32,000 bases of DNA from Acaryochloris thomasi RCC1774 (GCF_003231495.1 NZ_PQWO01000009.1:180001-212000); one strand, 5' to 3'; shown: positions 2,971 to 29,993, numbered from the stretch's first letter. Notes: generated from the letters alone by a model not told the origin. Translations and numbers: made by a program.

Positions 2971-5073
2971 TCAGACTTGGGCGTACTCTCCGGTCAGCTT
3001 AGTCAGCTGCTGTACCAAAAGACTGAGGAATAGGCCAACATCGGTGACAACGCCGATCGACTCAATGGAACCGCGATCGCTGAGCTTTGTTACCACCGCT
3101 GGATTAATATCCACACAGACCATCTTCACGCCCGCAGGCGTCATGTTGCCCACACCAATAGAATGCAGCATCGTTGACAGCATCAAAATCAGGTCTGCGC
3201 CTTCAATCAGGCGCGCATAGTCGGCCTGAGCCTCCAGTAAGTCCATCTTGGTATCCGGCAGGGGGCCATCATCTCGGATCGACCCAGCCAGAGAGAAGGG
3301 AACGTTGTGCTTGACGCATTCGTACATCACGCCGCTGCGTAAGGTGCCCTGCTCCACCGCGTTAGCAATACTGCCGCAGCGACGAATGGCGTTAATCGCC
3401 TTGAGGTGATGACGGTGCCCGCCATGAACGGAGACGCCCCGCTTCATATCCATCCCCAGGGAGGTGCCCATCATGGATTGCTCGATGTCGTGAACGGCGA
3501 TCGCATTTCCCCCCAGAAGCGCATGAACATACCCCTCTCGAATCAGCCTGTTGAGATGCTCACTACCGCCGGTATGGATGACCACCGGCCCCGCCGTCAC
3601 CACGACTTTGCCGCCCTGATCTCGAATCCGGCGCAAGTCCCAGGCAATTTGTTCGACGACTAATTCCACGCGACGCTCACTGGAAACGCCAGCGCCCATG
3701 AAGCCAAATTCTTCCGATGCGCCTTTTTTGAGCGTTGTCGCTGTGCGCTTGGTGCGAATGCCCTCACTGCCGACCACAACTGATTCGCCGACCTGTAAAT
3801 CTCTCAGTAGCTTGCAGCGGGCAGCGATACCACTGTTAGTTTGAGTGATTGCGATCGCACCATCCATCCGCTGACCTTGAACCCTGATCCATTGCCCCTC
3901 GATCAAGACTTCGGTGGGATAGATCGCCGTCACATAGAAATCATCCGGCGCAACGCCCGCCTGAACAACGGCCTCTAGCTCAGCATCAACCGCTTCTTCC
4001 GTGACGCTCACCGCACCGAGGTCCACTAACTGCCCCATAATGTCGGCAATGACGTCCGTATCCGGGGCTGAAACCTTGACTTCTGCAGTCGAAATATCCT
4101 GACGCTGTTCGCCCAGATCAAAATTTAGAACCTGGAAACTGCCGCCCCCCGCCACAATCGTATCCAGCGCTCGATTGACTAGACCCGTATCGAGTAAATG
4201 GCCTTCAAGATGAACAATACGACTTTGAATCGTGGAAGCCTGGGGCGAAGCGTGGCGCGGCTCTGTGGTCCTTAGAGTCAGACATTTGGCAGCCCCACCC
4301 GCCTTCAGAAATTCTGTGAGGGGCGTTTCAACCACGGTAAAGCCACAATCGCCGAGGCTTTGCTTGAGGCGATCGCTAACGTGGTTCATCACCACCACGC
4401 GATCAATATTTACGGCGTTACAGGCAAAGGTAACGGCATCTACCTCCTCAACCGCAATTCGCTTCTCAGCCGGGACACGCCGCTCAATCAAGTGATTGGA
4501 GTAGGTGTCAAAAGCTGGCGGATAGTAGAGCAGATACCCGTCCGTAAGCGGACAAAAGCAGGTATCTAGGTGGTAGAAGCGCCGGTCGACTAACCGCAGG
4601 GACAGCACTTCTACATCTAACCACTGGGCCAAATAAGGGTGGGAGTCCAGTTCAGAGCGAAACCCGTAGCCCGCCCATAGCCAGCCTCCGGCCCGATCGA
4701 GCAGCGCATCTCCGGCTCCTTCAAAGGGCAGGCTTTTGGGCAACGTATGCACGGTGTAGCCCTGATCTGTAAACCACTGTTGGAAATAGGGTTCTTCACC
4801 CTGCCGTTCAGGATGGAAAAAACGACTGAGCACGACGGTGTTGTCTAGAACCAGCCCTGCATTAGCGGTAAAAACCATATCTGGCCACCCCGGTTGAGGC
4901 TCCACTAGATCAACCGTCGCGTAGGTTTTCAAGACCCGATGCAGCTCATCCCACTGCAGTTCAGCACGGTCCCGCGACGAACGATGGATATTGCCCTCCA
5001 TCCAAGGGTTGATCACGTAATCGACATCATAATGATGCGGGGCACACATCAAAATTCGTACTGAATCGGTCAT
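2971..5073 (-). CDS. agrE: Bifunctional arginine dihydrolase / ornithine cyclodeaminase-like enzyme (guanidine-removing N-domain plus LOR/SDH-like C-domain)
   Basis: 700 aa. The N-terminus, MTDSVRILMCAPHHYDVDYVINPWMEGN...WPDMVFTANAG...FEGAGDAL...FYHLDTCFCPL...GGAAKCLTLR, is the amidinotransferase-fold signature that I recognise from Synechocystis ArgZ (Sll1336) and Anabaena AgrE (Alr4995). Both length and two-domain layout match. Confidence 0.88.
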   Translation of the reverse strand: MTDSVRILMCAPHHYDVDYVINPWMEGNIHRSSRDRAELQWDELHRVLKTYATVDLVEPQPGWPDMVFTANAGLVLDNTVVLSRFFHPERQGEEPYFQQWFTDQGYTVHTLPKSLPFEGAGDALLDRAGGWLWAGYGFRSELDSHPYLAQWLDVEVLSLRLVDRRFYHLDTCFCPLTDGYLLYYPPAFDTYSNHLIERRVPAEKRIAVEEVDAVTFACNAVNIDRVVVMNHVSDRLKQSLGDCGFTVVETPLTEFLKAGGAAKCLTLRTTEPRHASPQASTIQSRIVHLEGHLLDTGLVNRALDTIVAGGGSFQVLNFDLGEQRQDISTAEVKVSAPDTDVIADIMGQLVDLGAVSVTEEAVDAELEAVVQAGVAPDDFYVTAIYPTEVLIEGQWIRVQGQRMDGAIAITQTNSGIAARCKLLRDLQVGESVVVGSEGIRTKRTATTLKKGASEEFGFMGAGVSSERRVELVVEQIAWDLRRIRDQGGKVVVTAGPVVIHTGGSEHLNRLIREGYVHALLGGNAIAVHDIEQSMMGTSLGMDMKRGVSVHGGHRHHLKAINAIRRCGSIANAVEQGTLRSGVMYECVKHNVPFSLAGSIRDDGPLPDTKMDLLEAQADYARLIEGADLILMLSTMLHSIGVGNMTPAGVKMVCVDINPAVVTKLSDRGSIESIGVVTDVGLFLSLLVQQLTKLTGEYAQV

Positions 5074-5190
5074 GGTTCACTCATTGAAAAATTTTTCTAG
5101 ACTGAAAGCAACGGAGCGCTTCCCTTCATAAAAGGCCTCATTAATAGTAGCGATTCGTGCTCTGCTCGAATACGTCGAATCGCTGAATTT

Positions 5191-5226
5191 TCCCTTCTAA
5201 AGTCAAAAGTCTATGACTTTAGAAGG
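5191..5226 (-). terminator. Perfect 14-bp stem-loop between the DUF2283 gene and agrE (possible terminator or insulator)
   Basis: CCCTTCTAAAGTCA-aaagtcta-TGACTTTAGAAGGG, about 40 nt downstream of the DUF2283 stop. No U-tract follows on the minus strand, so intrinsic-terminator status is doubtful. Confidence 0.3.
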
Positions 5227-5500: not shown

Positions 5501-5771
5501 GCAATATGATGTCCTTCATCTTGATAACGCACTGTTCGCCAACATGAACGGGGCAGAGTCGAAGCTCTGGAAACAGCCCATGTTTGATAACCCCAATTAC
5601 AAACAATGAGCATAAATCATACGGATAGACCGGATCAATCAACTGCATCATCCATCACATAAAGGAAGTCTCTCGCGTTTGCTTCCAGCAGGATCCTTCA
5701 ACCCCTGCGGGGACAGATTTGTATTGACAGCGGAGGCTATAGTATTGAGTGATCCTGAGTCTAGTTAATTT

Positions 5772-7484
5772 ATGTCGAAGCCTGAATGCATGTCTCCCGA
5801 TGCTTCACTGCAGCATTCTACCGTTCGTCCCATCGGTGTATATGCCCTCACAGGACTGACGACGGATGGCGATCGCATCTTGGCCGTTGATACCGTTCGG
5901 GGCTACCTGCTCTCTATTGATCCACTCACGAATAACACCATTATCCTGAACCCTCATCAGGTTTCAGACTGGCTCGATGTCACGGGATTAACCCTGCACC
6001 AGGATACGTTCTGGTTTGCGAAGGATCAGGAGGTGTTTTGTTGCGATAGCCAAGGGCTGCTCGGAGACCATCGCGCGCCCCTAGAACAAAGGCATTTTGC
6101 TCACCTACCGTATCCTGTCGCCGGGGTGGCCGTGGGGCCGTCAGCGATCTATGTGAGCTGTCAAAAGTCTGGCTATATCCATGTTTTTGACCCCGCCACC
6201 GGCAAACCGTTAGATAAATTTCCTCAGCCCGGTGTGGGTTCTGAAACATTGACGGTGGCGGATGAACGGCTGTGGGTTTGCGATCGCGATGAGCAAACGG
6301 TTTATTGCCTCGATCCCGCCACTGGAGCCATTCAGTACAGCGCTCTAACCCCCTTCAGCTCCCCTACAGGAATCGCATTTTATACACCGAAGAATCAAGT
6401 GCCCATTTGCTATGTGGTGTACACCGATGAAGAACCCTATATACGGGATGATCCCAATGCCGAATCGCCCTATCAGCTGACCTTTCGCGATCGCACCTTT
6501 ATCCATCCCCTGTGTCTCCACCACAACCCAACAGAACATTACACACTCTCCAATGGTTACTTGGTAGAGCTGTCCTACGTCGAAGAACTGCTCTCCATCG
6601 AAGACGTAACCCTCAATAACGTTGAGTGGCGCATTGCCCTACCTTCTGAGACACAGCGTCAGCGCATCCGCCATATCGAGCCAATCGGCCATCCGTTCAC
6701 AATCGAAGAACAGAATGGGCAAAAGGTGGCCGTTTTCAAATTCGACCAGATCAAGCCCGATCAAGGCGGTCTTTTGGGCTGGAAAGCCACTGTTGAAATG
6801 TATAGCCTCAAGTATTCTCTAACCCCCGACGATATCGACTCGAATCTGACACTTGCTCCCGAGCTGCAAGCGCAATATTTGGTCGATGACGATGATCTGG
6901 CAATGGATACGTTCACTATTCAGGCCGCTGCGAAAGAGGCCGCAGGCACAGAAACAAACGTGCTACGGAAGATGCTCAAAATCCGCAACTACGTCTACGA
7001 TCGTCTTTCCTACGGCATCCGGCCCAAAATTGATACGCCTGATGTGGCCTTGGAGCGGGGCATTGGCTCCTGCGGCGAATACGTCGGGGTCTTGCTCGCC
7101 CTAGCTCGCCTGAACGGAATTGCCTGTCGCACCATTGGCCGCTACAAATGTCCTCAACATCCTGAATATCGCCATCTGCCCTTAGAGCCAGACTTTAACC
7201 ATGTGTGGCTAGAGTTTTATGTTCCTGGGATTGGCTGGCTACCGATGGAATCCAATGTCGATGACGTCATCGATCGCGGCCCGTACCCTGAGCGTTTCTT
7301 CATGGGCCTATCCTGGTATCACACTGAACTGGGCAAAGGTATCCCCTTTGCAAAAATGAAGGCTGACAACAAGCCAGAAGGTCTTTCCATGGGAGACTTA
7401 GCCATCAATCATATTCGCTTTAGGATTTTAGATGAGCTAATTCCTCAGCCTGTTGGCACAGACTCGGGAGTTGAGAGTCGTTGA
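5772..7484 (+). CDS. Transglutaminase-like (TGc) cysteine-protease-core protein with an N-terminal repeat (beta-propeller-like) region
   Basis: 570 aa. The C-terminal core reads GIGSCGEYVGVLLALARLNGIACRTIG...FNHVWLEFYVPGIGWLPMESN, a Cys/His/acidic arrangement as in the transglutaminase-like superfamily with Glu in the usual Asp position. The N-terminal half has repeated strand motifs (YIHVFDPATGKPL, VYCLDPATGAI). Confidence 0.8.
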   Translation: MSKPECMSPDASLQHSTVRPIGVYALTGLTTDGDRILAVDTVRGYLLSIDPLTNNTIILNPHQVSDWLDVTGLTLHQDTFWFAKDQEVFCCDSQGLLGDHRAPLEQRHFAHLPYPVAGVAVGPSAIYVSCQKSGYIHVFDPATGKPLDKFPQPGVGSETLTVADERLWVCDRDEQTVYCLDPATGAIQYSALTPFSSPTGIAFYTPKNQVPICYVVYTDEEPYIRDDPNAESPYQLTFRDRTFIHPLCLHHNPTEHYTLSNGYLVELSYVEELLSIEDVTLNNVEWRIALPSETQRQRIRHIEPIGHPFTIEEQNGQKVAVFKFDQIKPDQGGLLGWKATVEMYSLKYSLTPDDIDSNLTLAPELQAQYLVDDDDLAMDTFTIQAAAKEAAGTETNVLRKMLKIRNYVYDRLSYGIRPKIDTPDVALERGIGSCGEYVGVLLALARLNGIACRTIGRYKCPQHPEYRHLPLEPDFNHVWLEFYVPGIGWLPMESNVDDVIDRGPYPERFFMGLSWYHTELGKGIPFAKMKADNKPEGLSMGDLAINHIRFRILDELIPQPVGTDSGVESR

Positions 7485-7682
7485 AAAGTCAATCAGAGAG
7501 GACAGAAATCTAGATTGCTTTCTATGAAAAATGCTGCTGCTGGCACAATACACTTGGGCAAAATTTACTGTCGAAAGAATAGATCTTCAACTCCCCTAGA
7601 AGGGAAGGTTTTGGGGCAAGATGTAGCAGACGGGAGGTTGACCCTACAACCTTTTGGGGCCAAAGCATCCAAACACTCTGTA

Positions 7683-7908
7683 AGTAGCGAGGCAGAATCA
7701 AGTTAAAGATCAGATATTAGCAAATGCTCTACATGGCCCTCACCCCCAGCCCCTCTCCCAATGTTGGGAGAGGGGAGAAAGATCCCCTCGCTATCTGCCT
7801 TTCTCCCCCTTCGCCCAGTATTGGGAGAGGGCGGCTGGGGGGGGTGAGGGCCAATGCAACGATATTGAATTTAATCAGGAATCTTCAAGTCAATTAAGCC
7901 TATCTACT
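7683..7908 (+). mobile_element. MITE copy A (about 226 bp) with imperfect terminal inverted repeats, TA flanks and a GC-rich central palindrome
   Basis: Flanked by TA at 7681-7682 and 7909-7910. The ends are AGTAGCGAGGCAG...GCCTATCTACT. The core is GGCCCTCACCCCCAGCCCCTCTCCCAATGTTGGGAGAGGGG...GGTGAGGGCC. It is the reverse complement of the element at 22846..23013, except for an extra internal segment of about 55 bp (about 7768..7823) that looks like a degenerate duplication of one hairpin arm. Confidence 0.75.
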
Positions 7909-7937
7909 TACTCACTTAGTTCTTTACTAAATAAGCA

Positions 7938-8870
7938 ATGTCAAATTCTTATTCCTTGATGATTCATGGTGGTTCAGGTTCTTTGGAGGATCTGAAATAC
8001 GAGGCAGGCGAAGCCGAGTTCAGGGAGAGCATCAACACAATTCTAGAGAAGGGCCGTCATCGCCTAGAACAAGGAGATAGCGCCCTAGATGTGGTGGAGT
8101 ACTGCGTAACGCTTTTAGAGAATGATCGACTTTATAACGCAGGGCGAGGATCTGTTCTCAATGCCAAGGGAAAAGTAGAAATGGATGCCGCGATCATGAG
8201 CGGGAGAGATCTAGGGGCAGGGGCAGTAGCCTGCGTTGAGCAGGTTAAAAACCCGATCGCTGTGGCGCGTCGCGTGCTGGAGAAAGGAGAGCATGTCCTG
8301 CTGATGGGGTATGGAGCATTAGAATTTGCAAAATTGTGCCAGCTCGAAACCTGCCCTGAGGATTATTTCATTACTGAAAACCGGATTCAGCAGTTAGCAG
8401 AGGCACAGGCTGCAGGGCGAATTACGTTAGACCATGAGCGCGTCAAGCCACACTCCGAAAAACTAGGAACAGTGGGAGCTGTTGCCCGCGATCTGCAAGG
8501 TGATCTTGCAGCGGCAACTTCTACGGGGGGATTGGTGAACAATCACTGGGGCCGAGTCGGGGATACGCCAGTCGTTGGGGCGGGCGTATATGCCGACAAC
8601 CAAAGCTGTGCAGTCTCGGCAACTGGCTATGGAGAGGAGTTCTTGCGCACGGTGTTAGCGAAAACAATTTCTGTGTTTGTTGAATTTAAGGGCATGGATG
8701 CTGAGGCGGCAGCGAAGGCCGGGGTTGATTATCTAGTCAGGCGCGTGCAGGGAGAGGGTGGAGTGATTGTTATTGATACTGCGGGGCGTTGTGCTGCAGC
8801 TCAGTCAACGTCGGGCCTGATTTGCGGCTGGATTGAGATGGGGGGAGAAGCACACTGCACCTTAGGTTAA
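7938..8870 (+). CDS. iaaA: Isoaspartyl peptidase / L-asparaginase (plant-type Ntn hydrolase); candidate beta-Asp-Arg dipeptidase
   Basis: 310 aa. It starts LMIHGGSG, has the autoprocessing and nucleophile site EKLGTVGAVARD, then STGG and VVGAGVYAD. These are the standard motifs of the IaaA/All3922 family. Confidence 0.88.
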   Translation: MSNSYSLMIHGGSGSLEDLKYEAGEAEFRESINTILEKGRHRLEQGDSALDVVEYCVTLLENDRLYNAGRGSVLNAKGKVEMDAAIMSGRDLGAGAVACVEQVKNPIAVARRVLEKGEHVLLMGYGALEFAKLCQLETCPEDYFITENRIQQLAEAQAAGRITLDHERVKPHSEKLGTVGAVARDLQGDLAAATSTGGLVNNHWGRVGDTPVVGAGVYADNQSCAVSATGYGEEFLRTVLAKTISVFVEFKGMDAEAAAKAGVDYLVRRVQGEGGVIVIDTAGRCAAAQSTSGLICGWIEMGGEAHCTLG

Positions 8871-9047: not shown

Positions 9048-11000
9048 CTAAATCAGCTCTGGATCAGACATGATTTCTACTAAGGCAGGCCCTTGGTGCG
9101 TTAGCGCTTGAGCGATTGCGTCATCAAGTTCGTTCTGCTGTGTAACTCGGATACCGAACCCACCGCAATTCTGAGCATATTTAGAAAAATCAGGATTGTG
9201 CAATGAGGTTTGCCAGACATCCCATTCGCCTGCCCGCTGCTCTTTAGAGATTTTACCCAACTGATCGTTATGGAGCAGGATATGGGTAATGTTCATCTGG
9301 TATTTTACGGCTGTTGTAAATTCAGCCAAATATTGACCAAAGCCTCCATCTCCTGAGACTGAGATAATGCGGCGCTCATGGCCTGCGGCGGCCCAAGCTC
9401 CCATCGCAGCAGGGAAGGCAAATCCGATGGAGCCAAGGTAGCCCGACATTAAAACGGACTGGGCCTGACATTCAAAGTAGCGACCAAAGGAGTAGGTGTT
9501 GTTACCCACATCTACGGCAATCACGGCATCGGCAGAGACTTGGCGGGTCATGGCAGCAAAGATAGAGGCTGAGTTTAACCCTTGGCCTCGATCATCGGCT
9601 TCGCGACGAGCTTTTTCAGTTCGCCAAATGGTCCAGTGGTCTTGAATTTGCGATCGCACATCCTCTGTATCCACCTGCCCTGTAAGCGCTGTATTCAACT
9701 GCTCCACCACAACGCTGATTTCGCCCCAAACCGGCACCTCGACGGGATGGAATTTCCCTAGCGCCAGCGGGTCAAAATCCACTTGGATAATCGGCTTACC
9801 AGGATAAATTCCGGTGTGATTAGAAAACGAGGCTCCTAACACCAGCAACACATCAGCCTCATTCATGAACCAACTGGCAATGGGGGTGCCACTGCGTCCC
9901 AAGACTCCGCAGCCGAGGGGGTGACGGTCCGAGATCTGTCCTTTCCCCTTAAAGGTCGTGAGAATAGGCGCTCCCAATAGTTCTGCAAGTTCCGTAATAG
10001 CAGGCATATGGAAACGGGCACCATGCCCAACAATGATCACCGGGCGGCGGGATTGCTTGAGGCGATCAATAGCCTCAAGCAACGACTCAGGCGGCGGCGC
10101 AATCTGTAAGGGTGTCATCCGTCCGGCGGGGTTAGAAGCAGGTACATCCACCGCAGGCTGCATCTGAACTTCATCAGGAAAAATCAGGTGAGAGACATTT
10201 CGCTCTAATAGGGCATGTTTGACGGCTAGGGTCATTAACTCAGCGTGTTGGCTGTGGCTGAGCACCGTTTGGCTCCAAGCAGCTACGCCACTGAAGGCGG
10301 CCTGTAAATCACACTCTTGAAAATTGCCTGTGCCCAAAACCTGAGAATTGACCTGTCCCGTCAAGGCTAAAATCGGAGCGCGATCGACTTTTGCATCCCA
10401 CATGCCCGTGAGTAGGTTTGTTGCACCCGGTCCGGCAATAGTTAAGCAGGCCGCAGGTTTACCTGTCAGCTTTGCGTAGGCTGAGGCGGCGAAGGCAGCA
10501 GCTCCTTCATGGCGAATGCCGATATAGGTGAGCTTACCTTGTACCTCTTGACGGCGGAGTGCGTCTGCGAGGCCTAAATTAGAATGACCCACCATGCCGA
10601 AGACATGGGTGATACCCCAGTTCACCATCGTTTCCGCCATCACATCACTCACGGTGCGGGTGTGGGGTTGTTCAACGGGTAAGCCGACGTATATGCCATC
10701 CGCACGCACCTCTACTGGAAAGGTTGCGAGGGCATCATCAACGTCCAAAGCGTCGGGGGACTTGCCGGTTAGCGGGCAGTAGTCCCACCCGTGCCAAGGG
10801 CAGCGTAGGAGACCGTTTTCAATGGAGCCCTCACCGAGGGGACCGCCTTGGTGGGGACAGCGATTATCGAGGGCACCATATTGGCCTTTGTAATGGGTTA
10901 AGGCAAGGCTTTTATGGCCCGCCACTACAGTTTTGACACGGCTCTCAGGTAATTCGTCCAAACCTAGAACGCGGTACCACTGGGTTGTTATCTCCGGCAT
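9048..11000 (-). CDS. Rieske [2Fe-2S] domain fused to a thiamine-diphosphate-dependent enzyme (acetolactate synthase / pyruvate oxidase superfamily)
   Basis: The N-terminus carries the Rieske motif CPHQGGPL...(16)...CPWHGWDY. The TPP N-domain follows (IRHEGAAAFAASAYAKLTGKPAACLTIAGPGATNLLTGMWDA), then the TPP-binding motif GDGGFGQYLAEFTTAVKYQMNITHILLHNDQLG. The ORF track starts at a TTG (11015). I prefer the ATG at 11000, which is preceded by GAGGAGAGAG. Confidence 0.85.
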   Translation of the reverse strand: MPEITTQWYRVLGLDELPESRVKTVVAGHKSLALTHYKGQYGALDNRCPHQGGPLGEGSIENGLLRCPWHGWDYCPLTGKSPDALDVDDALATFPVEVRADGIYVGLPVEQPHTRTVSDVMAETMVNWGITHVFGMVGHSNLGLADALRRQEVQGKLTYIGIRHEGAAAFAASAYAKLTGKPAACLTIAGPGATNLLTGMWDAKVDRAPILALTGQVNSQVLGTGNFQECDLQAAFSGVAAWSQTVLSHSQHAELMTLAVKHALLERNVSHLIFPDEVQMQPAVDVPASNPAGRMTPLQIAPPPESLLEAIDRLKQSRRPVIIVGHGARFHMPAITELAELLGAPILTTFKGKGQISDRHPLGCGVLGRSGTPIASWFMNEADVLLVLGASFSNHTGIYPGKPIIQVDFDPLALGKFHPVEVPVWGEISVVVEQLNTALTGQVDTEDVRSQIQDHWTIWRTEKARREADDRGQGLNSASIFAAMTRQVSADAVIAVDVGNNTYSFGRYFECQAQSVLMSGYLGSIGFAFPAAMGAWAAAGHERRIISVSGDGGFGQYLAEFTTAVKYQMNITHILLHNDQLGKISKEQRAGEWDVWQTSLHNPDFSKYAQNCGGFGIRVTQQNELDDAIAQALTHQGPALVEIMSDPELI

Positions 11001-11022
11001 AGTCTCTCTCCTCAATCAAAAT

Positions 11023-11754: not shown

Positions 11755-11870
11755 GATGCATTGCCTCTAGATTTTGATCGGATGTTGATCGTGCTTTCAC
11801 GAATTTACTGGAGAGTGTTGACGATTCAGCACTTTCCCCACAAGACTTATGCTCTGCAATCAACGAATTG

Positions 11871-13418: not shown

Positions 13419-13436
13419 TGCGTGTTTTCTAATTGT

Positions 13437-22500: not shown

Positions 22501-22604
22501 CGCTTTTCTGCGGTCTGCGCCAACAGCTCCCGCGCAATGGCCTGGGTCTTTTCTTCATAGAGAGGCGGAGTCGTAAGTTCAGAACGAGACGGATTCACAG
22601 TCAT
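19581..22604 (-). CDS. putA: Bifunctional proline dehydrogenase / delta-1-pyrroline-5-carboxylate dehydrogenase
   Basis: About 1007 aa. The N-terminal PRODH region reads FDMEQY...LQAYLRDS...VRLIKGAYWDQE...GSHN. The C-terminal ALDH has the catalytic Glu (VAEMGGKNAIIVD) and Cys (GYSGQKCSACSRVVV). The ORF track starts at a TTG (22625); the ATG at 22604 (MTVNPS) is more likely. Confidence 0.9.
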   Translation of the reverse strand: MTVNPSRSELTTPPLYEEKTQAIARELLAQTAEKRSLLAKIQDQFRWDDKLLNWTMDNPSLRVQLFRLIDCLPSLTTKAEMARHLQEYLSVPDVELPEALKRLLNFTASDSIPGQVAATTLSTSVATLAQKYIAGETLKQVLKTINRLRKQSMTFAIDVLGEAVITEKEAQSYLDQYLALMGQLTEVSRRWSSVPQIDAADGDDLAKVQVTLKLTAFYSQFDPLDVEGSQTTVCDRIRILLRRAQEVGADVHFDMEQYRYKDATLATLKSLLMEEEFCDRNNIGITLQAYLRDSYGDLKDLIEWAKQRGKPITVRLIKGAYWDQETIIARQNHWPTPVYNHKSSTDANFERMTQLLLENHEHLYAAIGSHNVRSQAHAISIAQTLNIPQRHIEFQVLYGMADNLAAALAKQGHRVRVYCPYGALIPGMAYLIRRLLENTANSSFLRQSLTETPIEELLAAPQWREGDQDGSEVEPTPMPVTTTATQIDPSADTNFAIATHRTQAESALTAVKQQLGQQYWPLIDGERVQTEKKVQSVNPSNPTEIVGTVGQINIAQAEDAIAAAKAAFQTWKRTSAKERADILRRAANLLEARRHELNAWMVFEAGKPLQQADVEVSEAVDFCRYYAAEMERLDPKIIYDVAGESDRYFYRPKGIVLVISPWNFPLAIPTGMTVAALVTGNCVLLKPAAVTSVIAAKLSEILVEAGIPKGVFQYVPGSGSTVGAHLVKHPAVQMIVFTGSQEVGCEIYANAAVLQPGQRHLKRVVAEMGGKNAIIVDESADLDQAVQGVVYSAFGYSGQKCSACSRVVVLASVYDAFVARLVEATKSLNVGIAADPGTKVGPVIDEAAQQRIRETIDKGKTEANLALQLPAPETGYFVGPVIFTEVDPHSSLAQEEIFGPVLSVIKAQSFEEGVAIANNTNFALTGGLYSRTPSHIEQAKTEFEVGNLYINRSITGAIVARQPFGGYKLSGVGSKAGGPDYLLQFLDPRTVTENIQRQGFAPIEGIE

Positions 22605-22753: not shown

Positions 22754-23878
22754 TTAAATATCTAGGGGGCTACGAACGCTCAAAGTACCTTGATTGAGAA
22801 CATGGGTATAAATCATCGTGGTTTTTACGTCTTTGTGCCCTAATAAGTAGATAGGCTCAATTGACTTGAAGATTCCTGATTAATTTCAATATCGTTGCAT
22901 TGGCCCTCACCCCCAGCCCCCCTCTCCCAATGTTGGGAGAGGGGGGCTGGGGGTGAGGGCCATGTAGAGCATTTGCTAATATCTGATCTTTAACTTGATT
23001 CTGCCTCGCCACTTAGCTCCTGAACGGTACGAATGTCATAGCCGTTTTGCCGCAAATGAGTCGCAAAGCTATGGCGAAGCGTGTGACAGCTTACTTTCTT
23101 AGCTATTTGAGCTTGGTGGGCTGCTTTCTTGAGCGAGTGCTGCAGAAAACCATCGCCTAAACGATGTCGCTGTTCTCTACCACTGCGAGGATCGGTGCTG
23201 CGCCGTTGAGCCGGAAAAACATATTGCCAAATCCATTCTTGTTCTGCGTTGGGATATTTGCGATCAAGGGCGTGGGGTAACGGTGCTATATCCTTGAGCT
23301 AGCTCATCTTGCTGCAGTTGCTTAACGTAGACGAGATGGGCCTGTAGGAGTTCAATGAGACTTTGTGGAAGAACGGTGATTCGGTCTTTATTACCTTTGG
23401 CATTCCGCACCATCACTTGAGACTGACCAAAATCAAGATCTTTCACTCGCTAGGCGTAGCCCTTCTTTGACCCGCATCTCAGCTTAGCCAAGAGCTGTTG
23501 AATCCCCTCTAGTGCCTGCAATAAACGCTGAAACTCATCGGCCGTCAACACTGTAGGTAAATGCTTGGACTGTCTGGCCCGAACTACATCAATAGATTCG
23601 GCTAAAGGCTGTTTCAGTACCTGCCGATAGAGAACCAGCAAGGCACTGAGCGCTTGATTTTGGGTGGATGCTGCCACATCTCCGTTAACGGCTAAATGGG
23701 TGAAGAATGCCTTTACTTCGGCCTCGCCCATTTCTTGGGGATGCCGTTTATGGTGAAACAGAATAAAGCGCCGGATCCACCAAACATAAGTTTTTTCTGT
23801 GCGATGGGCATAGTGCTTGACTCGCAGTGCATCGCGCACCTGATCAAGCAGCTTTCTGGGCTTGGTGAGTTCTTCCAT
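22754..23878 (-). pseudogene. intI: Integron-type tyrosine recombinase (IntI-like) pseudogene, disrupted by frameshifts, an in-frame stop and a MITE insertion
   Basis: N-terminus: LDQVRDALRVKHYAHRTEKTYVWWIRRFILFHHKRHPQEMGEAEVKAFFTHLAVNGDVAASTQNQALSALLVLYRQVL. A stop and frame changes occur around 23445-23490 (the GMRVKEGLRL stretch sits in another frame). VKDLDFGQSQVMVRNAKGNKDRITVLPQSL follows. A frameshift occurs near 23283. Next comes [41 protein letters not shown], which is the IntI-specific extra domain, then [14 protein letters not shown]...[10 protein letters not shown]. The MITE interrupts at this point. The frame resumes after it with [29 protein letters not shown] and a stop. Confidence 0.85.
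22846..23013 (-). mobile_element. MITE copy B (168 bp), inserted in the intI pseudogene with a TA target-site duplication
   Basis: Flanked by TA at 22844-22845 and 23014-23015. Removing the element plus one TA restores gtt cag gag cta tta ggg cac, which reads VQELLGH. That is exactly the conserved recombinase box II junction. The centre is a 29-bp perfect inverted repeat (22902..22961, GGCCCTCACCCCCAGCCCCCCTCTCCCAA tg TTGGGAGAGGGGGGCTGGGGGTGAGGGCC). Confidence 0.85.
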
Positions 23879-24168
23879 ATGAGCTGGATAATAGCTATGG
23901 GAGGAAATTTATATAGATGAATGCAGTCTAAATCGCTACCACTTCCTAGGCAAAAGCTTCTAAAACTCCTATGGAATGATGCATATAGCGATTTCAGGAT
24001 TGGTTTCTATATTTAAACCTTACAAGATATGTATTCGTGAAGACTCAGGTGTTACTCTTCTACAAAAGCTGCCAAATTTAGACTTTAGCAGTTAATGACT
24101 CTAAATAAGCAAGCTTTTTAGTCCGCGAACTGCAGACTAAATATAGTCAGACCTTTGATATTGACATC

Positions 24169-24546
24169 ATGGATTTTGATAAATTTTCAATTAGTGAGTT
24201 TCAAAGGCGAGGTCTTAACAGTACTTCTTCTCGTAAGCTAGCAGATGAACTTGAGGAAGCTGCATTGCAAGAGATTCATAGTGTTCTAATGCCGACGATG
24301 AATAAAATCATTGATGAGCTTAATAAACGTGGGCACCAACTGACATTTTATGAAGATCCGATACCAGGAGATATTTCATATAGACACAAAGATGGTGATG
24401 GAGAGATGGGGTTAAGAATTGCTGTTGACACTATCATTTCAACTGGATATTCTCACCTATATGACAACAATCAATCAGATGAAGAGATAATTGAAGAAGT
24501 GGTTGATAATTTATGTAAGCTTATCGAGCCGACAGATCTAATTTGA
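24169..24546 (+). CDS. Hypothetical acidic protein (integron cassette ORF 1)
   Basis: 125-aa ORF, AT-rich, with no HIP1 and no motif that I recognise. It is the first ORF downstream of, and divergent from, the intI pseudogene, and an attC-like site follows it. Confidence 0.55.
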   Translation: MDFDKFSISEFQRRGLNSTSSRKLADELEEAALQEIHSVLMPTMNKIIDELNKRGHQLTFYEDPIPGDISYRHKDGDGEMGLRIAVDTIISTGYSHLYDNNQSDEEIIEEVVDNLCKLIEPTDLI

Positions 24547-24590
24547 GAGTTTTTTTCGATTATCACAAAATCCATACTTTCTGAGCTATG

Positions 24591-24683
24591 GTTTAACTAG
24601 ACCATACAGCGGGACGCTCGAAATACCCTATTACTCAACGCTTTAAATTAATTCTCGCGCCCCTGATGGGGTAGCCGTTAGGC
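24591..24683 (+). other. attC-like recombination site 1 (93 bp)
   Basis: Bounded by GTTTAAC (fits RYYYAAC) and GTTAGGC (fits GTTRRRY). The internal arms are imperfectly complementary with unpaired bases (ACCATACAGCGGGACGCTCGAA versus the reverse complement ACCCCATCAGGGGCGCGAGAA). The next ORF starts 8 nt after the GTTAGGC. Confidence 0.5.
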
Positions 24684-24690
24684 ATATGCC

Positions 24691-25236
24691 ATGAATTTCG
24701 AAACGCAGATCGAAAAATGGGTTTCTGAGGACAGCTCAAGAATTCATGCTCTAGAGATAGCCTCCGAACTTAAACTCAACGATTGGTGTCTGGCTGCGGG
24801 GTTCGTAAGAAACATGGTTTGGGATAAACTCCATGATCGCCATTTCCCAACACCGCTCAATGACATCGATTTAATCTACTTCAATCGTGAAGAATCTTCG
24901 TTGGAAACCGACCAGGACTTGGAATCCATTCTTAAGACTAAATTGAACAAGCCTTGGTCTGTGAAAAACCAAGCGCGAATGCATCTAAGAAATAAAGATG
25001 CGTCATATACATCGACGGAAGATGCAATGAGTTATTGGGTTGAGGTGGAAACTGCAATTGGAGTCAGGTTAAGCCCTACGGACGGTCTGGAACTTGTTGC
25101 ACCATTCGGACTTTCATCGCTGTTTTCAAGTACCGTTACCATTAACGATAAGCGCAGAAAGCCAAAAGAATTTTATGAGCGAGTCCGTTCAAAGAAGTGG
25201 CTGCAAACGTGGCCGAAGTTGAAAATATATGCCTAA
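24691..25236 (+). CDS. Nucleotidyltransferase-family protein (PF06042/DUF925-like); integron cassette ORF 2
   Basis: 181 aa. LAAGFVRNMVWDKLH...PLNDIDLIYF...WSVKNQARMH matches my memory of the NTP_transf_6 family. The stop codon lies inside the next attC-like site. Confidence 0.7.
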   Translation: MNFETQIEKWVSEDSSRIHALEIASELKLNDWCLAAGFVRNMVWDKLHDRHFPTPLNDIDLIYFNREESSLETDQDLESILKTKLNKPWSVKNQARMHLRNKDASYTSTEDAMSYWVEVETAIGVRLSPTDGLELVAPFGLSSLFSSTVTINDKRRKPKEFYERVRSKKWLQTWPKLKIYA

Positions 25237-25281
25237 AAAGTCGCTGCAACGGACCCTTGCACGCTGAGCTAAGCGTTAGGC
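25231..25281 (+). other. attC-like recombination site 2 (51 bp)
   Basis: GCCTAAA...GTTAGGC. The outer boxes are complementary in 6 of 7 positions. The inner arm AGTCGCTGCAA pairs with TTGCACGCTGAGCT if three bases are extrahelical (AG[C]TC[A]GC[G]TGCAA on the complement). The unpaired bases sit on the 3' arm, which is atypical. The site is shorter than most attC sites. Confidence 0.5.
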
Positions 25282-25407
25282 TACTTTAATCGTCGGGAGG
25301 ACAGTCTGAAAGCTAGTTATGGTGGAGCAGAGTCGGGTTATAGTGTGCGTTGAATATTTGCAGTCTAGCTACGTGTAAGCACTACATAGATCTTCAGAGG
25401 AGTTTTC

Positions 25408-25803
25408 ATGCTTCAAGGTAAAATTGTGCGTGTTGCTCGCCCAACTGACCAATTAGAGGAAGTCGTCAAATTCTACACAGAAGGTCTAGGGTTTCAAATT
25501 CTCGATCATTTTGAGAATCATGAAGGATTTGATGGTGTAATGCTTGGAATACCAGGAGAACCTTACCATTTTGAGTTTACACAGCAGCAAGAACACAGTG
25601 TTGGTCGTGCTCCAACGCAAGACAACCTGATTGTTTTTTACTTTCCAGATCAACAAGAGTGGCAATGTGCCGTTGATCAAATAAAAGTGAGTGGATATAA
25701 GCCTATACAGTCTTATAACCCTTATTGGGATAGAAGTGGAGTAACCTTTGAAGATCCAGATGGATACCGTATCGTCTTACAAAATGCTACTTGGGAGACA
25801 TAA
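25408..25803 (+). CDS. VOC-family protein (glyoxalase / bleomycin-resistance / dioxygenase fold); integron cassette ORF 3
   Basis: 131 aa. VARPTDQLEEVVKFYTEGLGFQILDHFENHEGFDGVMLG...HFEFTQ...TFEDPDGYRIVL is a typical VOC beta-alpha-beta-beta-beta pattern. GAGGAG lies 7 nt upstream of the ATG. Confidence 0.75.
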   Translation: MLQGKIVRVARPTDQLEEVVKFYTEGLGFQILDHFENHEGFDGVMLGIPGEPYHFEFTQQQEHSVGRAPTQDNLIVFYFPDQQEWQCAVDQIKVSGYKPIQSYNPYWDRSGVTFEDPDGYRIVLQNATWET

Positions 25804-25915
25804 CGTGTTGGGCCAGCACCCAACAGCACCGTGCAAAGGATGCTTGAAACACACTTCTCGTTGGACATTTTTTATTCTGCTCACGCCCGTGCAGTGATCG
25901 GGGGTTGTGACAATT

Positions 25916-26023
25916 GAGAGGGATCATATATTTCTCGACCAAGATCTTCTCATGATCGAAGACATCCATATCTTGATCGGTTACTTCCCCGTGCAGCAAT
26001 AGAGGCATGCCTACCTTTTTCAT
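25916..26023 (-). pseudogene. pyrC: Dihydroorotase (class II PyrC) internal fragment, truncated at both ends
   Basis: The first 36 codons of the 25787..26023 ORF read KKVGMPLLLHGEVTDQDMDVFDHEKILVEKYMIPL. This closely parallels E. coli PyrC ...[34 protein letters not shown]. The similarity stops abruptly afterwards. The region that should encode the PyrC N-terminus is occupied by the cphA1 3' end. Confidence 0.6.
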
Positions 26024-26106: not shown

Positions 26107-28797
26107 TTAAGTCTTGATTCCATCCAGGCAGATATCTGCATTTTTAAAATCGGCTGATCGTGCCTCCTCTGGCTTTTCAACAATTGGATTTCGAGCCTTA
26201 ATCAATGAGATTGTTCGACTAACATTATCAGGAAAAACAACGACAAGCGACTCTTTAGGGGCATTATCTAGTGCCCATATAATGGCCTCTGCTTCGTCTA
26301 GGCGAACAGAGTGGGAGGCTGCCGACTCAGCCCCGCCCTGACAGATGCCCTGAACAATTAGCTCTGCGGCATTACCGGGAGCGCGACCCCGCCCATCATC
26401 ATCTTCTTTAACAATAATCTGATCGAAGAACGTCGCCGAGAGTTTGCCGAGATCAATTAAATCTTGATCGCGGCGATCACCCGGTCCCCCGACCACGCCA
26501 ATGGCAGGGCCAGTCCAGTTTTTGACAAAGCCCCCTACCGCTTTATATCCGGCTGGGTTATGGGCATAGTCCACCAGTACGTGAAATTGGCCGAGGTTGA
26601 AGAGATTCATACGTCCCGGCGTCTGCTGTTCTGAGGCTTTAAAACTGTGCAGAGCCGCCTGAATCTGCTTGACGGTCACGCCTTGGACATAGGCAGCTAG
26701 ACTTGCCGCCAGAGCATTAGCAATCATGAACGGAGCCATTCCACCCAGCGTTACCGGAACTTGTTTAACGTGCTCAATACGGTGAACCTGATCCTGCTGC
26801 ACAATGGTTAGGTAGCCTTGGTCGTAGACGGCAGCGATTCCACCCTGCTTGAGGTGCGATCGCAACACTTCATTTTCAGGATCCATCGAAAAATAGGCCA
26901 CTTTTCCGGGCACCTGCGCCGCCATTGCCGCGACTCGCGGATCATCAGCATTAAGAACAGCATAGCCATCGGGATGCACCGTCTCAGCGATCACTCCTTT
27001 GACCCTGGCCAACTGATCAACGGTATTAATATCTCCTAGCCCCAAATGGTCCGCCGCCACGTTCAGAACGACTCCCACATCACACTGTGAAAAGGCCAAG
27101 CCCGAACGCAAAATACCGCCCCGAGCTGTTTCAAGAACCGCAATATCCACCGTCGGATCCTGCAGAACCATTTGTGCACTCAGGGGGCCTGTGGTGTCTC
27201 CCTTCTCGACGAGGCGATCGCCGATATAGATGCCGTCGGTGGTCGTAAAGCCCACAGCATCATAAACCTGACGGCAAATATGGGCAATGAGTCGCGTGGT
27301 GGTGGTTTTGCCATTGGTACCCGTCACCGCCACAATGGGCACCCGAGTCGGCGTCCCCGGCGGAAACAGCATCTTAATGATGGGTGCTGCCACATTACGA
27401 GCGCGGCCTTCACTAGGTGCAATGTGCATCCGTAACCCGGGTGCTGCGTTAACCTCAACAATCACGCCATCTGCCTGGCTCAGGGGTTGAGTGATATCAG
27501 TTGTAATCACATCAATCCCTGCAATATCGAGGTCAATAATGCGAGATACCCGTTCCGCTAACCAAACAGTTTCTGGATGAATCTCATCGGTGCGGTCAAT
27601 GGCAATGCCGCCCGTACTGAGGTTGGCTGTTGCGCGCAGGTAACCAATTTGATTGGGCTGCAAAACAGTGTCAACGGTGAACCCTTGACGGCTCAGCATG
27701 GCATCAGTGGCGTCGTCCAGTTGAATATGGGTGAGGATGTTGTCGTGCCCCGCGCCCCGACGATGATCTCGATTCTCTTGTTCAACAAGGGCTGCAATTG
27801 TGTCTTTACCATTGCCAACTACGTGAGCCGGGACGCGCTCTGCAACCGCGACAACTTTGTGGTTAACGACCAGAATGCGATGATCTCGGCCCTGATAGAA
27901 ATGTTCGACAATCACGCCTGTAGAAATATCCTTGGCTCGGTCGTAGGCAATTTCTACCTGTTCTTTTGACTGAATATCAATGGTGATCCCGCGACCGTGA
28001 TTTCCATCTAAGGGCTTTATCACAATCGGATAGCCACCCAAGTCTTCAATCGCGTTATCTAATTCGCTAAAGGCATAAATCACTTTACCCAATGGAACCG
28101 GCGCACCCATACGCGTCAGAATTTCTTTAGTCCGTTCCTTATCGCAGGCTAATTCGACCCCCAAAACGTTGCTATGGGAGGTGAGTGCTGCCTGTAGTCG
28201 CTTTTGGTATTTGCCGTATCCAAGCTGATGGAGATCGCAATTCTCTAGCTCCATCCACGGGATATTGAGGGCTTCTGCCTCGCGGATCAGCGCCTCGGTG
28301 CTCGCCCCTAGGGCGGCTTCAGTACGCAGCTCAACCAAATCTTCTAAATCCGTTTGCAGTTCAGCTTCAGGGTAGGTGCCTGTTTCAGCCAAGCTCTTAC
28401 ATAAACGGTGGGCAGCTCGGGTGGCATAGCGACCGGCGGCTTCATTTTGATATTCAATTGCAACTTGATAAACGCCGGGGGTTACCGTCTCGCGGGTACG
28501 ACCAAACCCCACCTCCATGCCCGCTAAAACCTGGAGTTCTAGCGCCACATGCTCTAGGATATGCCCCACCATGGTGCCTTCCTGGACCCGGCTGAGAAAC
28601 CCACCCCGACACCCTGGCGAGCAGTGATGCTCTTCTAGGCTAGGTAAAACCGAGATTAATCCGTTGTAGAACCCTGGAATCGTATCAGACGGACGGTTAG
28701 CCAAGTCCTCCAGGTCCAGCCGAATGAGAATCAACTTTGCCCGACGAATACTCCAGTAGTTAGGGCCTCGAAGCGTTTGGGTTTGGAGAATTTTCAT
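26107..28797 (-). CDS. cphA: Cyanophycin synthetase (CphA1 type; N, ATP-grasp G and complete Mur-ligase M domains)
   Basis: 896 aa. Starts MKILQTQTLRGPNYWS and has an ATP-grasp core. The P-loop VTGTNGKTTTTRL is at about 27295-27330. ETARGGILR, NVAADHLG, TPGRMN, VDYAHNPAGY and GGPGDRRD are all present. Confidence 0.95.
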   Translation of the reverse strand: MKILQTQTLRGPNYWSIRRAKLILIRLDLEDLANRPSDTIPGFYNGLISVLPSLEEHHCSPGCRGGFLSRVQEGTMVGHILEHVALELQVLAGMEVGFGRTRETVTPGVYQVAIEYQNEAAGRYATRAAHRLCKSLAETGTYPEAELQTDLEDLVELRTEAALGASTEALIREAEALNIPWMELENCDLHQLGYGKYQKRLQAALTSHSNVLGVELACDKERTKEILTRMGAPVPLGKVIYAFSELDNAIEDLGGYPIVIKPLDGNHGRGITIDIQSKEQVEIAYDRAKDISTGVIVEHFYQGRDHRILVVNHKVVAVAERVPAHVVGNGKDTIAALVEQENRDHRRGAGHDNILTHIQLDDATDAMLSRQGFTVDTVLQPNQIGYLRATANLSTGGIAIDRTDEIHPETVWLAERVSRIIDLDIAGIDVITTDITQPLSQADGVIVEVNAAPGLRMHIAPSEGRARNVAAPIIKMLFPPGTPTRVPIVAVTGTNGKTTTTRLIAHICRQVYDAVGFTTTDGIYIGDRLVEKGDTTGPLSAQMVLQDPTVDIAVLETARGGILRSGLAFSQCDVGVVLNVAADHLGLGDINTVDQLARVKGVIAETVHPDGYAVLNADDPRVAAMAAQVPGKVAYFSMDPENEVLRSHLKQGGIAAVYDQGYLTIVQQDQVHRIEHVKQVPVTLGGMAPFMIANALAASLAAYVQGVTVKQIQAALHSFKASEQQTPGRMNLFNLGQFHVLVDYAHNPAGYKAVGGFVKNWTGPAIGVVGGPGDRRDQDLIDLGKLSATFFDQIIVKEDDDGRGRAPGNAAELIVQGICQGGAESAASHSVRLDEAEAIIWALDNAPKESLVVVFPDNVSRTISLIKARNPIVEKPEEARSADFKNADICLDGIKT

Positions 28798-29183
28798 AGG
28801 TTATGGAGAGTGCTTGAGCCGATTCCAGCAGTTTAATGACAGTCTTGAGCGTTTAAATAGGCGTTGTTAAGGACTCAACTCAAGATTAATTTGTTTACGA
28901 ACGCTATTATTTGTTAACCCCAAGTTCTGTAGTTTTAGCTACATATGTGCGTAGTAGATTAGTAGTCTCAGGCTTTCTTAGGTCTGCTTTGAAGCACTCA
29001 AATCCATTCAGGGCTTGAGGTATCGTAACATGCTGAAATAGCCGATAAATCAGACTATTTCAATCCTATATAAGTGGCTTTGCGGGTTTTGGCCATTCGT
29101 ACAGGACTATCAGATTAACCGCATCGAGCAATTTCCCATGATTACAAATCTCGCTCTAATTCTGGGACGCTTAAAAAGCTGCG

Positions 29184-29993
29184 CTAAGACGGCAAAACAG
29201 TCCGATGCTGATAGTGGTAGAGATCGCCCCGGTTTAGAATGTGCACGGTTAGATTGTGCAAACTGAGGGGAGACGTTTCGTCTGACTCTGGGTGATTCGT
29301 ATAGGCCAATTCCCCTGGATCGATGACGGTGATCGACCCCTTACCCAATATTTCAAAGCTCCCATCCCCTCTGAAGGCAGCACAGGTATCTTCGTCAATG
29401 CCCATCCCTAGCTTCTCAGGATACGTTGCGATCGCACTGAGTAATCGAGCCATCCGATTGCGATTATGGAAGTGCTGATCCACCAACACTTCAGGAATAA
29501 TTCCTAACCCATCCATCAAATCGACGAGTGAGCGGTTGGGAGATTCACCACTGCTGCCCCCCGAGATCATTTTTTCGCCCATAATGGCAGCGCCAGCGCT
29601 GGTTCCAGCAAGGACAAGCGAGCCCAGATGAAGCCGCTTTCTGATAGCTGCAATAAATTTACTATCGTTGATGAAGTGGAAAAGACGAACCTGATCGCCA
29701 CCTGTCACAAAGACACCCGTACAGTCATCTAAGATATCGAGCCAGCGCAGCTCATCACACTCATGGGGTCGCCGAATATCAAGAACCTCAACCCGGTGCG
29801 CCCCCATTCTCTTGAAGATCTGGTAATAGCGATCGCCGACCGCACTGGGTTCTTGTGAAGCGCAGGGAATAATGCCGATGGTTGCTAGCTTTCCGCCTGC
29901 ACTCTCGAAAAAGGCGGTTAATATACTGCACTCATTGACCTTATCTTCTGCTCCACCAATAACCATAATTGGGTACTGGGTCGGAATTACCAT
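29184..29993 (-). CDS. cphB: Cyanophycinase (S51 serine peptidase)
   Basis: 269 aa. Motifs are IMVIGGAEDK, VFVTGGDQ, the catalytic-Ser motif LAGTSAGAAIMG, and VDQHF..RNR..RL. It sits upstream of and co-directional with cphA, the classic cphBA arrangement. Confidence 0.93.
   Translation of the reverse strand: MVIPTQYPIMVIGGAEDKVNECSILTAFFESAGGKLATIGIIPCASQEPSAVGDRYYQIFKRMGAHRVEVLDIRRPHECDELRWLDILDDCTGVFVTGGDQVRLFHFINDSKFIAAIRKRLHLGSLVLAGTSAGAAIMGEKMISGGSSGESPNRSLVDLMDGLGIIPEVLVDQHFHNRNRMARLLSAIATYPEKLGMGIDEDTCAAFRGDGSFEILGKGSITVIDPGELAYTNHPESDETSPLSLHNLTVHILNRGDLYHYQHRTVLPS

Follow-up and report, generated by a model that had tools for sequence, protein, structure and literature searches.

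The conversion of cyanophycin to glutamate has so far been pictured in two parts, namely clusters of cphA1 and cphB with an occasional dipeptidase gene, and an arginine-to-glutamate branch known from scattered genes. Arginine catabolism by AgrE/ArgZ plus PutA is said to have been described by Burnat and co-workers in 2019 and by Zhang and co-workers in 2018, and the corresponding genes of the model strains are dispersed (alr4995 and alr0540 in Anabaena PCC 7120; sll1336 and sll1561 in Synechocystis PCC 6803). The steps carried out by cyanophycinase (CphB) and isoaspartyl dipeptidase are established (PMC10206079), as is the route from arginine through ornithine and proline to glutamate via AgrE and PutA (PMC8262935). 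Approximately one third of the genomes that possess cphA1, a gene for cyanophycinase and either iaaA or iadA have all three in a cluster (Sharon et al, 2023; PMC10206079). Here we analyse a 32,000-nt stretch of Acaryochloris thomasi RCC1774 (the window; coordinates are those of the whole stretch), in which genes for all of these steps lie within 27 kb. We consider it highly likely that this locus is a clade-conserved cluster for cyanophycin turnover and for funnelling the arginine of the polymer to glutamate; the grouping is inherited, and probably functional rather than accidental.

The clusters of Sharon et al resemble the present one in that cphB is adjacent to cphA1 and a gene for an isoaspartyl peptidase of the N-terminal nucleophile (Ntn) type lies nearby. 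Here, genes for ArgZ/AgrE, PutA and a transglutaminase-like protein are present in addition, often together with a second cphA-like gene, the product of which we call CphA-L. When the distance of ≤5 kb used by those authors is applied, the cphB–cphA1 pair of the window falls within it, whereas iaaA falls outside (distance 7.1 kb to CphA-L, 17 kb to cphA1); in four related loci from the surveys below (L017, L086, L089 and L096) iaaA is included as well. The AgrE/ArgZ and PutA proteins of Anabaena and Synechocystis agree with those of the window in domain architecture and in the chemistry inferred for them, but in the clade of A. thomasi the genes are linked to each other and to cphBA. Loci for the utilisation of cyanophycin by scavengers (cited in PMC10206079) likewise co-localise a depolymerase and a dipeptidase; however, they carry a transporter, lack cphA1 and serve the uptake of external polymer, whereas the conserved set described here contains a synthetase and no transporter. 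In the searchable literature, a scope outside which key subscription-only papers fall, we found no description of CphA-L or of cphBA linked to putA and argZ.

Genes were called from a listing of open reading frames (ORFs) together with Pfam and NCBIfam scans, with the curated NCBI equivalog cutoffs as thresholds; the encoded proteins are PZD72677 to PZD72696 of A. thomasi RCC1774, from a contig of 215 kb. A preliminary description of this DNA had placed cphB, cphA1, a second cphA-like gene, an isoaspartyl peptidase gene, agrE/argZ and putA in the window, and the scans recovered all six intact. The genes of the proposed cluster are:

2971-5073, minus strand: argZ/agrE (NF052231, TIGR00300, Arg_dihydro)
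5772-7484, plus strand: gene for a transglutaminase-like protein of 570 aa (Pfam Transglut_core)
7938-8870, plus strand: iaaA, Ntn-type (plant-type) isoaspartyl peptidase/asparaginase (Pfam Asparaginase_2)
15932-19327, minus strand: CphA-L, a cphA-like fusion of 1131 aa (N, G and M-core domains plus a tail)
19581-22604, minus strand: putA, bifunctional (PutA_N, Pro_dh and Aldedh)
26107-28797, minus strand: cphA1, cyanophycin synthetase 1 (TIGR02068)
29184-29993, minus strand: cphB, cyanophycinase (TIGR02069, Peptidase_S51)

Hidden Markov model cutoffs and relatives in the PDB upheld the gene identities that had been proposed, and the proposed pathway logic agrees with the published steps. The 2971-5073 product scored 1353 bits against NF052231 (bifunc_ArgZ; cutoff 1025), matching model positions 1-696, and also exceeded the cutoffs of NF052232 (526; cutoff 450) and TIGR00300 (587; cutoff 411). 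With Arg_dihydro at residues 4-268, TIGR00300 at residues 282-693 and ArgZ-like C-terminal domains detected by Pfam, it is predicted to be a full-length bifunctional ArgZ/AgrE composed of guanidino-modifying and LOR/SDH-like cyclodeaminase domains. Its orthologues in related loci are 81-89% identical and adjoin either the transglutaminase-like gene or cphB. The 7938-8870 product matched Asparaginase_2 with E = 1.6e-97 and contains the autoproteolytic GT178VGAVA site (Thr178) and the TSTGG and GRVGD motifs. Its best PDB relative was the EcAIII/IaaA precursor of E. coli (2zak, 217 bits), ahead of glycosylasparaginase (~133) and taspase (~105), although it scored below the cutoff of the E. coli-specific equivalog model (249 vs 567). 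We assign it on these grounds to the Ntn-class IaaA/EcAIII type, not to the glycosylasparaginases or taspases; hydrolysis of beta-Asp-Arg to Asp and Arg is its putative role, as suggested by genomic association. PutA combines PutA_N, Pro_dh (E = 3.7e-100) and Aldedh (E = 3.1e-154) in one polypeptide, and scored 781 against TIGR01237 (cutoff 660) and 699 against the proteobacterial NF008869, under the cutoff of 747 for that model. CphA1 scored 1210 against TIGR02068 (cutoff 850), comprises Cyanophycin_syn, RimK, Mur_ligase_M and Mur_ligase_C domains, and has the signatures of all three active sites intact: Cx19HxxEH (C59...H79ILEH83), DGNHGRG, and GTNGKTT, ARGG and DHLG. CphB scored 293 against TIGR02069 (cutoff 127) and matched Peptidase_S51 (E = 3.9e-26); 386 bp separate its gene from cphA1.

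Conservation of the linkage was surveyed around putA in 80 GTDB species-representative loci plus L001, taking 10 kb on each side and searching with the window proteins by tblastn; loci were split at a PutA identity of 73%, and those at or above this value were counted if they had sufficient upstream sequence. In 20 of these 22 loci cphA1 directly precedes putA on the same strand, and in 18 of 20 loci of that set cphB was present upstream of cphA1. The spacing between cphA1 and putA in these relatives is mostly tens to a few hundred bp, reaching ~1.1 kb. Below 73% identity the adjacency of cphA1 and putA was seen in 0 of 41 loci (e.g. Microcoleus, Elainellaceae, Coleofasciculaceae and Oculatellaceae). 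argZ was also found in seven loci of this survey; it stands immediately upstream of cphB in three Chamaesiphon metagenome-assembled genomes (MAGs; L006-L008) and in L017. All five enzymes and the transglutaminase-like gene occur together in L011, L017, L027 and L028.

These counts bear on the simplest alternative, that the proximity is an accident of the strain or of recent shuffling by mobile elements in A. thomasi. The window does contain a broken integrase, repeat copies of a mobile type, a bordering tRNA-Gly and horizontally acquired genes, as such a history would leave behind. However, linkage of this gene set recurs in over 20 further species and on numerous metagenome contigs, and the mobile DNA sits between the gene modules, separating rather than gathering them. 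Moreover, if argZ, iaaA, putA and cphBA are treated as four independent units placed at random in a genome assumed to be ~6 Mb, the probability of their falling within 27 kb is ~4 x (27/6000)^3, or ~4e-7. We regard an accidental origin as extremely improbable. The preliminary description had itself asked whether a synteny survey would reveal strain-specific happenstance, which the 20 of 22 clade loci with cphA1–putA exclude; and of its two proposals, that the genome had assembled or had retained a supercluster, retention is borne out, since many related species also have these genes linked, frequently in a tighter form.

A second survey was anchored on the transglutaminase-like gene and covered 80 metagenome loci, of which the 22 with a protein at least 63% identical were taken as the clade. 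Within this clade argZ lay no more than 2.5 kb upstream of the transglutaminase-like gene in all of 12 loci, iaaA followed it on the same strand in 15 of 18, and cph or putA genes were near it in 7 of 22. The arrangements vary, being compact in L096, L097 and L103, convergent in L086, L088 and L089, and split in L090. Among the 58 more distant loci (<63% identity), iaaA was linked in 1 of 45 and argZ in 1 of 35. There are, then, two conserved modules, cphB–cphA1–putA on the one hand and argZ with the transglutaminase-like gene followed by iaaA on the other, and these are repeatedly joined.

A compact form of the joined cluster is found in L017, where 12 kb hold iaaA and the transglutaminase-like gene on the minus strand followed by argZ, cphB, cphA1 and putA on the plus strand. 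Spacers of ~20-230 bp, and an 8-nt overlap between the transglutaminase-like gene and iaaA, suggest co-transcription in the compact form. In L011, L027 and L028, cphB–cphA1–putA is followed by ~3 kb of variable DNA and then by iaaA and the transglutaminase-like gene, both on the minus strand, and argZ; the order and orientation in L011 and L027 are exactly those of the window read along its minus strand, and argZ is reversed in L028. What lies between the modules differs from locus to locus: patatin and acyltransferase genes (L011), an epimerase gene (L027), a Uma2 gene (L028) or, in the window, a redox island. Since linkage has been kept through rearrangements and through free replacement of the inter-module DNA, it is likely to be more than residual synteny, although this does not prove selection.

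Phylogenetic inertia could in principle keep the genes together with neither selection for proximity nor shared regulation. Consistent with this, linkage is confined to loci at or above an identity of 73% for PutA or ~63% for the transglutaminase-like protein and is abruptly lost below these values, and no regulatory motif is common to all members. In the Phormidesmis group, moreover, pathway-unrelated genes upstream of cphB (helicase, DoxX, YchJ and DUF4404) are also conserved, and these look like plain synteny. Yet the cluster genes stay linked through at least four different orders and orientations while the DNA between the modules is freely replaced, and the genes of the compact forms stand close together on a single strand, with small gaps and in one case an overlap. 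Inertia alone consequently appears to us quite unlikely, and we favour a conserved cluster for cyanophycin turnover.

From the gene identities, the conservation, the variant arrangements and the domain-wise constraint observed here, we infer co-expression of the genes, flux through the pathway and activities for CphA-L and the transglutaminase-like protein. In the proposed scheme, CphA1 would build cyanophycin, CphB would cut it to beta-Asp-Arg and IaaA would free Asp and Arg from the dipeptide; ArgZ/AgrE would then convert arginine via ornithine to proline with release of ammonium, and PutA would oxidise proline to glutamate. Module 1 (cphB–cphA1–putA, on one strand with short spacers) and module 2 (argZ plus a transglutaminase-like/iaaA operon) would derive from an ancestral cluster of the kind fused within ~12 kb in some relatives, the copy in A. 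thomasi having been spread by insertions. CphA-L would be a recurrent extra member, acting through its constrained ATP-grasp G domain.

Several observations weigh against this scheme. The linkage is limited to one clade and could partly be inherited synteny. Neither of the clade members L010 and L013, in which PutA is 77-78% identical and of which one is a Chamaesiphon MAG, carries cph, argZ or iaaA within 10 kb of putA, so that some lineages have lost or dispersed the cluster. A single transcript is impossible in the window, since unrelated DNA separates the modules there. Scans of the window for consensus promoters and terminators gave counts at chance level, and the NtcA-type palindrome GTAN8TAC is not enriched in it (3 seen vs 2.9 expected) and is absent upstream of argZ, putA and iaaA. 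In addition, IaaAs encoded in clusters stay promiscuous (PMC10206079), and the sequence of IaaA cannot reveal its substrate specificity. Finally, the transglutaminase-like gene stands amid unrelated housekeeping genes in most cyanobacteria.

As regards regulation, the best sigma-70-like site of the region, TTGATT-17-TATAAT at 30075-30047, is located just upstream of cphB. One of the three palindromes lies ahead of cphA1, which is weak evidence:

28929-28942, no strand: NtcA-type palindrome GTAN8TAC, 132-145 nt upstream of cphA1

Five other loci have a comparable GTAN8TAC site ahead of cphA1, and 8 of 22 loci have one ahead of argZ. The cluster genes may be co-regulated.

The 27-kb neighbourhood appears to be an expanded copy of the ancestral cluster, with the modules kept in the same order and orientation. 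It measures 27 kb rather than 12 kb because of three lineage-specific insertions: a miniature inverted-repeat transposable element (MITE), a six-gene redox island and an integrase-remnant cassette. The inserted features (the proteins among them identified by domain scans unless indicated otherwise) are:

7681-7910, no strand: MITE-like GC-rich palindromic repeat, copy 1 (inverted copy at 22844-23015)
9048-11015, minus strand: Rieske-TPP enzyme
11023-11754, minus strand: membrane protein
11871-13418, minus strand: GMC oxidoreductase
13437-14183, minus strand: YjeF_N NAD(P)HX epimerase
14240-14653, minus strand: YHS protein
14768-15163, minus strand: DM13 protein
22844-23015, no strand: MITE copy 2, inverted relative to 7681-7910
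23264-23878, minus strand: broken tyrosine integrase
24169-24546, plus strand: ORF of 125 aa (ORF listing)
24691-25236, plus strand: NTP_transf_6 protein
25408-25803, plus strand: YycE-like glyoxalase

MITE copy 1 is ~230 bp long, and the two inverted copies, with arms of 77 nt and 71 nt, show 97% complementarity. Its insertion accounts for the 453-bp spacer between the transglutaminase-like gene and iaaA, which is -8 to 150 bp in most relatives. The copies are GC-rich and hairpin-forming, and bracket the 15-kb segment from iaaA to putA; such a pair could mediate inversion of the segment, the present orientation of which agrees with that of relatives at both junctions. The insertion between cphA1 and putA spans 22844-26023 and includes MITE copy 2, the broken integrase, the 125-aa ORF, and the NTP_transf_6 and glyoxalase genes. 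The tyrosine recombinase gene is a pseudogene, an N-terminal SAM-like domain of 142 aa and a fragment of 60 aa being encoded separately.

The redox island (9048-15163) adjoins the gene for CphA-L, and several of its members had been put forward, through guilt by association, as candidates for cyanophycin or arginine metabolism. None of its six genes is near the cluster in any of the 21 other cluster-bearing putA loci or in L170, the closest relative found (PutA 85% and ArgZ 89% identical). The Rieske-TPP protein, a Rieske [2Fe-2S] domain fused to a pyruvate-oxidase-like thiamine pyrophosphate (TPP) enzyme, is 63% identical to proteins of haloarchaeal plasmids (Haloferax, Halorubrum and Halorarius) and 55% identical to one encoded by a plasmid of Mycobacteroides abscessus. 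Its partner on the Haloferax plasmid (L164 8001-9983 and 11137-11868) is a YjeF_N gene, 44% identical to that of the window and 1.2 kb away, which points to a cross-domain mobile module of Rieske-TPP and YjeF_N. The GMC and DM13 proteins are 90% and 73% identical, respectively, to products of A. marina CCMEE 5410, in which the genes for DM13, a glyoxalase and GMC directly follow the pentose-phosphate genes tal-pgi, gnd, zwf and fbp (L166 8345-11548). The GMC protein falls into a cluster of 42 members at 90% identity, A. marina strains among them, and is present in CCMEE 5410 and several other listed A. marina strains. Other orthologues of A. thomasi and A. marina are ~61-83% identical (PMC8949462), so that the GMC value, being above the usual level, suggests recent transfer or unusually strong constraint. 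Cyanophycin genes are missing from all A. marina strains but one (PMC8949462). Being unlinked to the cluster elsewhere and associated with other partners, the island genes make poor candidates: the association argument does not hold for the Rieske-TPP, GMC, DM13 and YHS proteins, nor for the YjeF_N and membrane proteins. It does stand for the transglutaminase-like gene, which lies between argZ and iaaA throughout the clade, and for the CphA-like fusion.

The transglutaminase-like gene is divergent from argZ and upstream of iaaA. Its product consists of a beta-propeller, a beta-sandwich and a Transglut_core domain (Pfam E = 3.6e-19). More than 2000 homologues were found at E ≤ 1e-10, the best 120 being 73-84% identical, and C434, H477 and the acidic candidates E493, D497 and D498 are invariant in 31 homologues. 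An AlphaFold2 (AF2) model was confident for the propeller (residues 25-217) and poor for the catalytic core. When this model was used in Foldseek, the matches were generic propellers, the best compact ones being the glutaminyl cyclases of papaya and Zymomonas (target template-modelling score ~0.6), a likeness that we take as a lead only. In distant cyanobacteria the neighbouring genes encode a P-type ATPase, RecF, HisA/F, DUF928, an RRM protein and Pth, and gave no functional hint. The operon-like pairing with iaaA and the divergent pairing with argZ make the protein a reasonable, but not a strong, candidate for a part in the pathway.

CphA-L starts at the ATG at 19327, not at the TTG at 19444. 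Residues 1 to ~730 comprise N, G and M-core domains derived from CphA1, and a tail of ~400 aa takes the place of the Mur_ligase_C lid. Over 734 aa the protein is 70% identical to the product of the neighbouring cphA1; it scored 879-889 bits against CphA1 structures (7wac, 889) vs 251 and 226 against the CphA2 structures 7ta5 and 8fxh, and 842 against TIGR02068, slightly under the cutoff of 850. In a tree it was placed at the base of the local CphA1 subclade.

The three catalytic regions have fared differently. In the N domain, H57K, C59Y, R70Q and E82K destroy the Cx19HxxEH peptidase motif defined previously (PMC9262961). In the M domain the P-loop reads AETGGSE instead of TGTNGKT (K497S), ARGG has become SHSS and DH has become DQ (H584Q). 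These lost M motifs, together with the absence of the Mur_ligase_C lid required for arginine addition, set CphA-L apart from a CphA1 with an active M domain. Measured against 21 CphA1 orthologues, the CphA1-invariant positions are retained to 96% in the G domain (130/135), 78% in the N domain and 68% in the M-core, and the ratio of nonsynonymous to synonymous substitution rates (dN/dS) relative to cphA1 is 0.06 for G, 0.12 for N and 0.14 for the M-core, at a dS of ~2. In the G domain the position of H267 is occupied by Q. Substitution H267A inactivates the G domain of SuCphA1 (PMC9262961); the active E. coli RimK, however, natively has Q where this position aligns.

A query with the tail returned three relatives only, and CphA-L was at one point taken for a one-off chimera; a search with the CphA part (residues 1-734) overturned this, revealing at least 22 proteins of 970-1154 aa among the best 120 matches. 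All 22 lack Mur_ligase_C and have the same tail. How far the N and M sites have decayed varies in a graded manner within the family, and the G-loop GN[HQ]GRG is kept in every member. The family is apparently undescribed.

CphA-L is also a recurrent neighbour of the cluster, lying beside cphB–cphA1(–putA) in four of seven contexts and beside putA in two more:

L172, L173 and L174: CphA-L, then cphB, cphA1 and putA; argZ also present in L174
L175: CphA-L, then cphB and cphA1
Window and L170: CphA-L follows putA
L171: CphA-L unlinked
L001: a 223-aa remnant in the position of CphA-L

In L170 the transglutaminase-like gene comes next after CphA-L, at a distance of 194 bp and with no iaaA between them. 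In that locus putA (5513-8546) is split in two, with ORFs of 228 aa and 776 aa, because of what appears to be a frameshift or an assembly error. The 223-aa ORF of L001 (10001-10672; GCA_965187715.1), upstream of cphB–cphA1–putA, consists of a CphA N domain fused directly to part of the small beta domain of the tail and has E55K, C63Y and R102C in common with CphA-L of the window; by its composition it looks like an internally deleted remnant of CphA-L.

The last ~180 aa of the tail are homologous to free-standing proteins of 450-474 aa. In L002 (191-3676) and L003 (211-3696) such free-standing homologues, of 450 aa, are encoded two genes downstream of a coupling protein of the TraG/VirD4 type. 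The tail domain may come from a conjugative element; the tail had no match in the plasmid collection searched. Its AF2 model was of low confidence (predicted local distance difference test score 50).

Is the second cphA-like gene a decaying pseudogene, produced by rearrangement with a mobile-element gene and adding nothing to the cluster? The lost N (C59Y, E82K), P-loop and H584Q signatures, the Q at position 267, the homology of the tail to a protein encoded near a TraG-like coupling protein and the mere remnant left in L001 would all fit. However, the ORF of 1131 codons is intact despite a dS of ~2, with the low dN/dS values given above (0.06 for G and 0.12-0.14 for N and M-core); the invariant positions of the G domain are almost completely kept; the 22 family members share the architecture in other organisms; and the Q is native to RimK, an active ATP-grasp ligase. 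We judge a pseudogene unlikely, and prefer the view that CphA-L would depend solely on its G domain, in the manner of CphA2 re-polymerising beta-Asp-Arg, an analogy we draw from the constraint on that domain.

CphA2 is a beta-Asp-Arg polymerase whose gene lies beside cphB2 in N2-fixing cyanobacteria (PMC10273328); it has no N peptidase motif, a conserved G domain and a truncated, inactive M domain (PMC9262961, PMC10273328). CphA-L resembles it in that the N domain is non-catalytic, the ATP-grasp G domain conserved and the M domain truncated and inactive, and in having a cyanophycinase gene for a neighbour. It differs in length (1131 aa, vs ~630-640 aa for CphA2), in being nearer to CphA1, in keeping an M-core of ~240 aa and in its extra tail of ~400 aa. 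CphA-L would thus have the functional logic of CphA2 without belonging to its lineage.

A more far-reaching proposal, which we put forward tentatively and think doubtful as a whole, is that CphA-L represents a third synthetase-like type and that the transglutaminase-like protein is a cyanophycin cysteine amidase or isopeptidase. CphA-L would then have arisen from CphA1 independently of CphA2, its G domain would re-polymerise beta-Asp-Arg or else cap or prime chains, and the tail, with its long helices, hydrophobic segment and small beta domain, would anchor or regulate it. The substrate of the transglutaminase-like protein would be cyanophycin or a product of it, and its action would precede or parallel that of IaaA.

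Two further features of the window lie outside these questions. A tRNA gene 160 bp upstream of cphB, between it and a divergent gene for an AMP-binding enzyme, marks the border of the cluster and was the sole match in an Rfam scan of the window:

30154-30226, minus strand: tRNA-Gly(CCC) (ARAGORN; Rfam tRNA, 71 bits)

The HIP1 palindrome GCGATCGC occurs in most short direct-repeat families of the window (e.g. 3850-3857, 12568-12575, 19499-19506, 21111-21118 and 29427-29434), consistent with a cyanobacterial origin.

For this clade, the physical linkage of all the steps, sometimes within 12 kb and on one strand, provides independent genomic support for a single route from cyanophycin through arginine and proline to glutamate, and the compact natural operons could be used for its heterologous reconstruction. 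The candidates for new players are cut from eight interleaved genes to two, the transglutaminase-like protein and CphA-L. The graded loss of two of the three active sites across the CphA-L family would represent a natural experiment on how a CphA1 evolves towards a CphA2-like enzyme.

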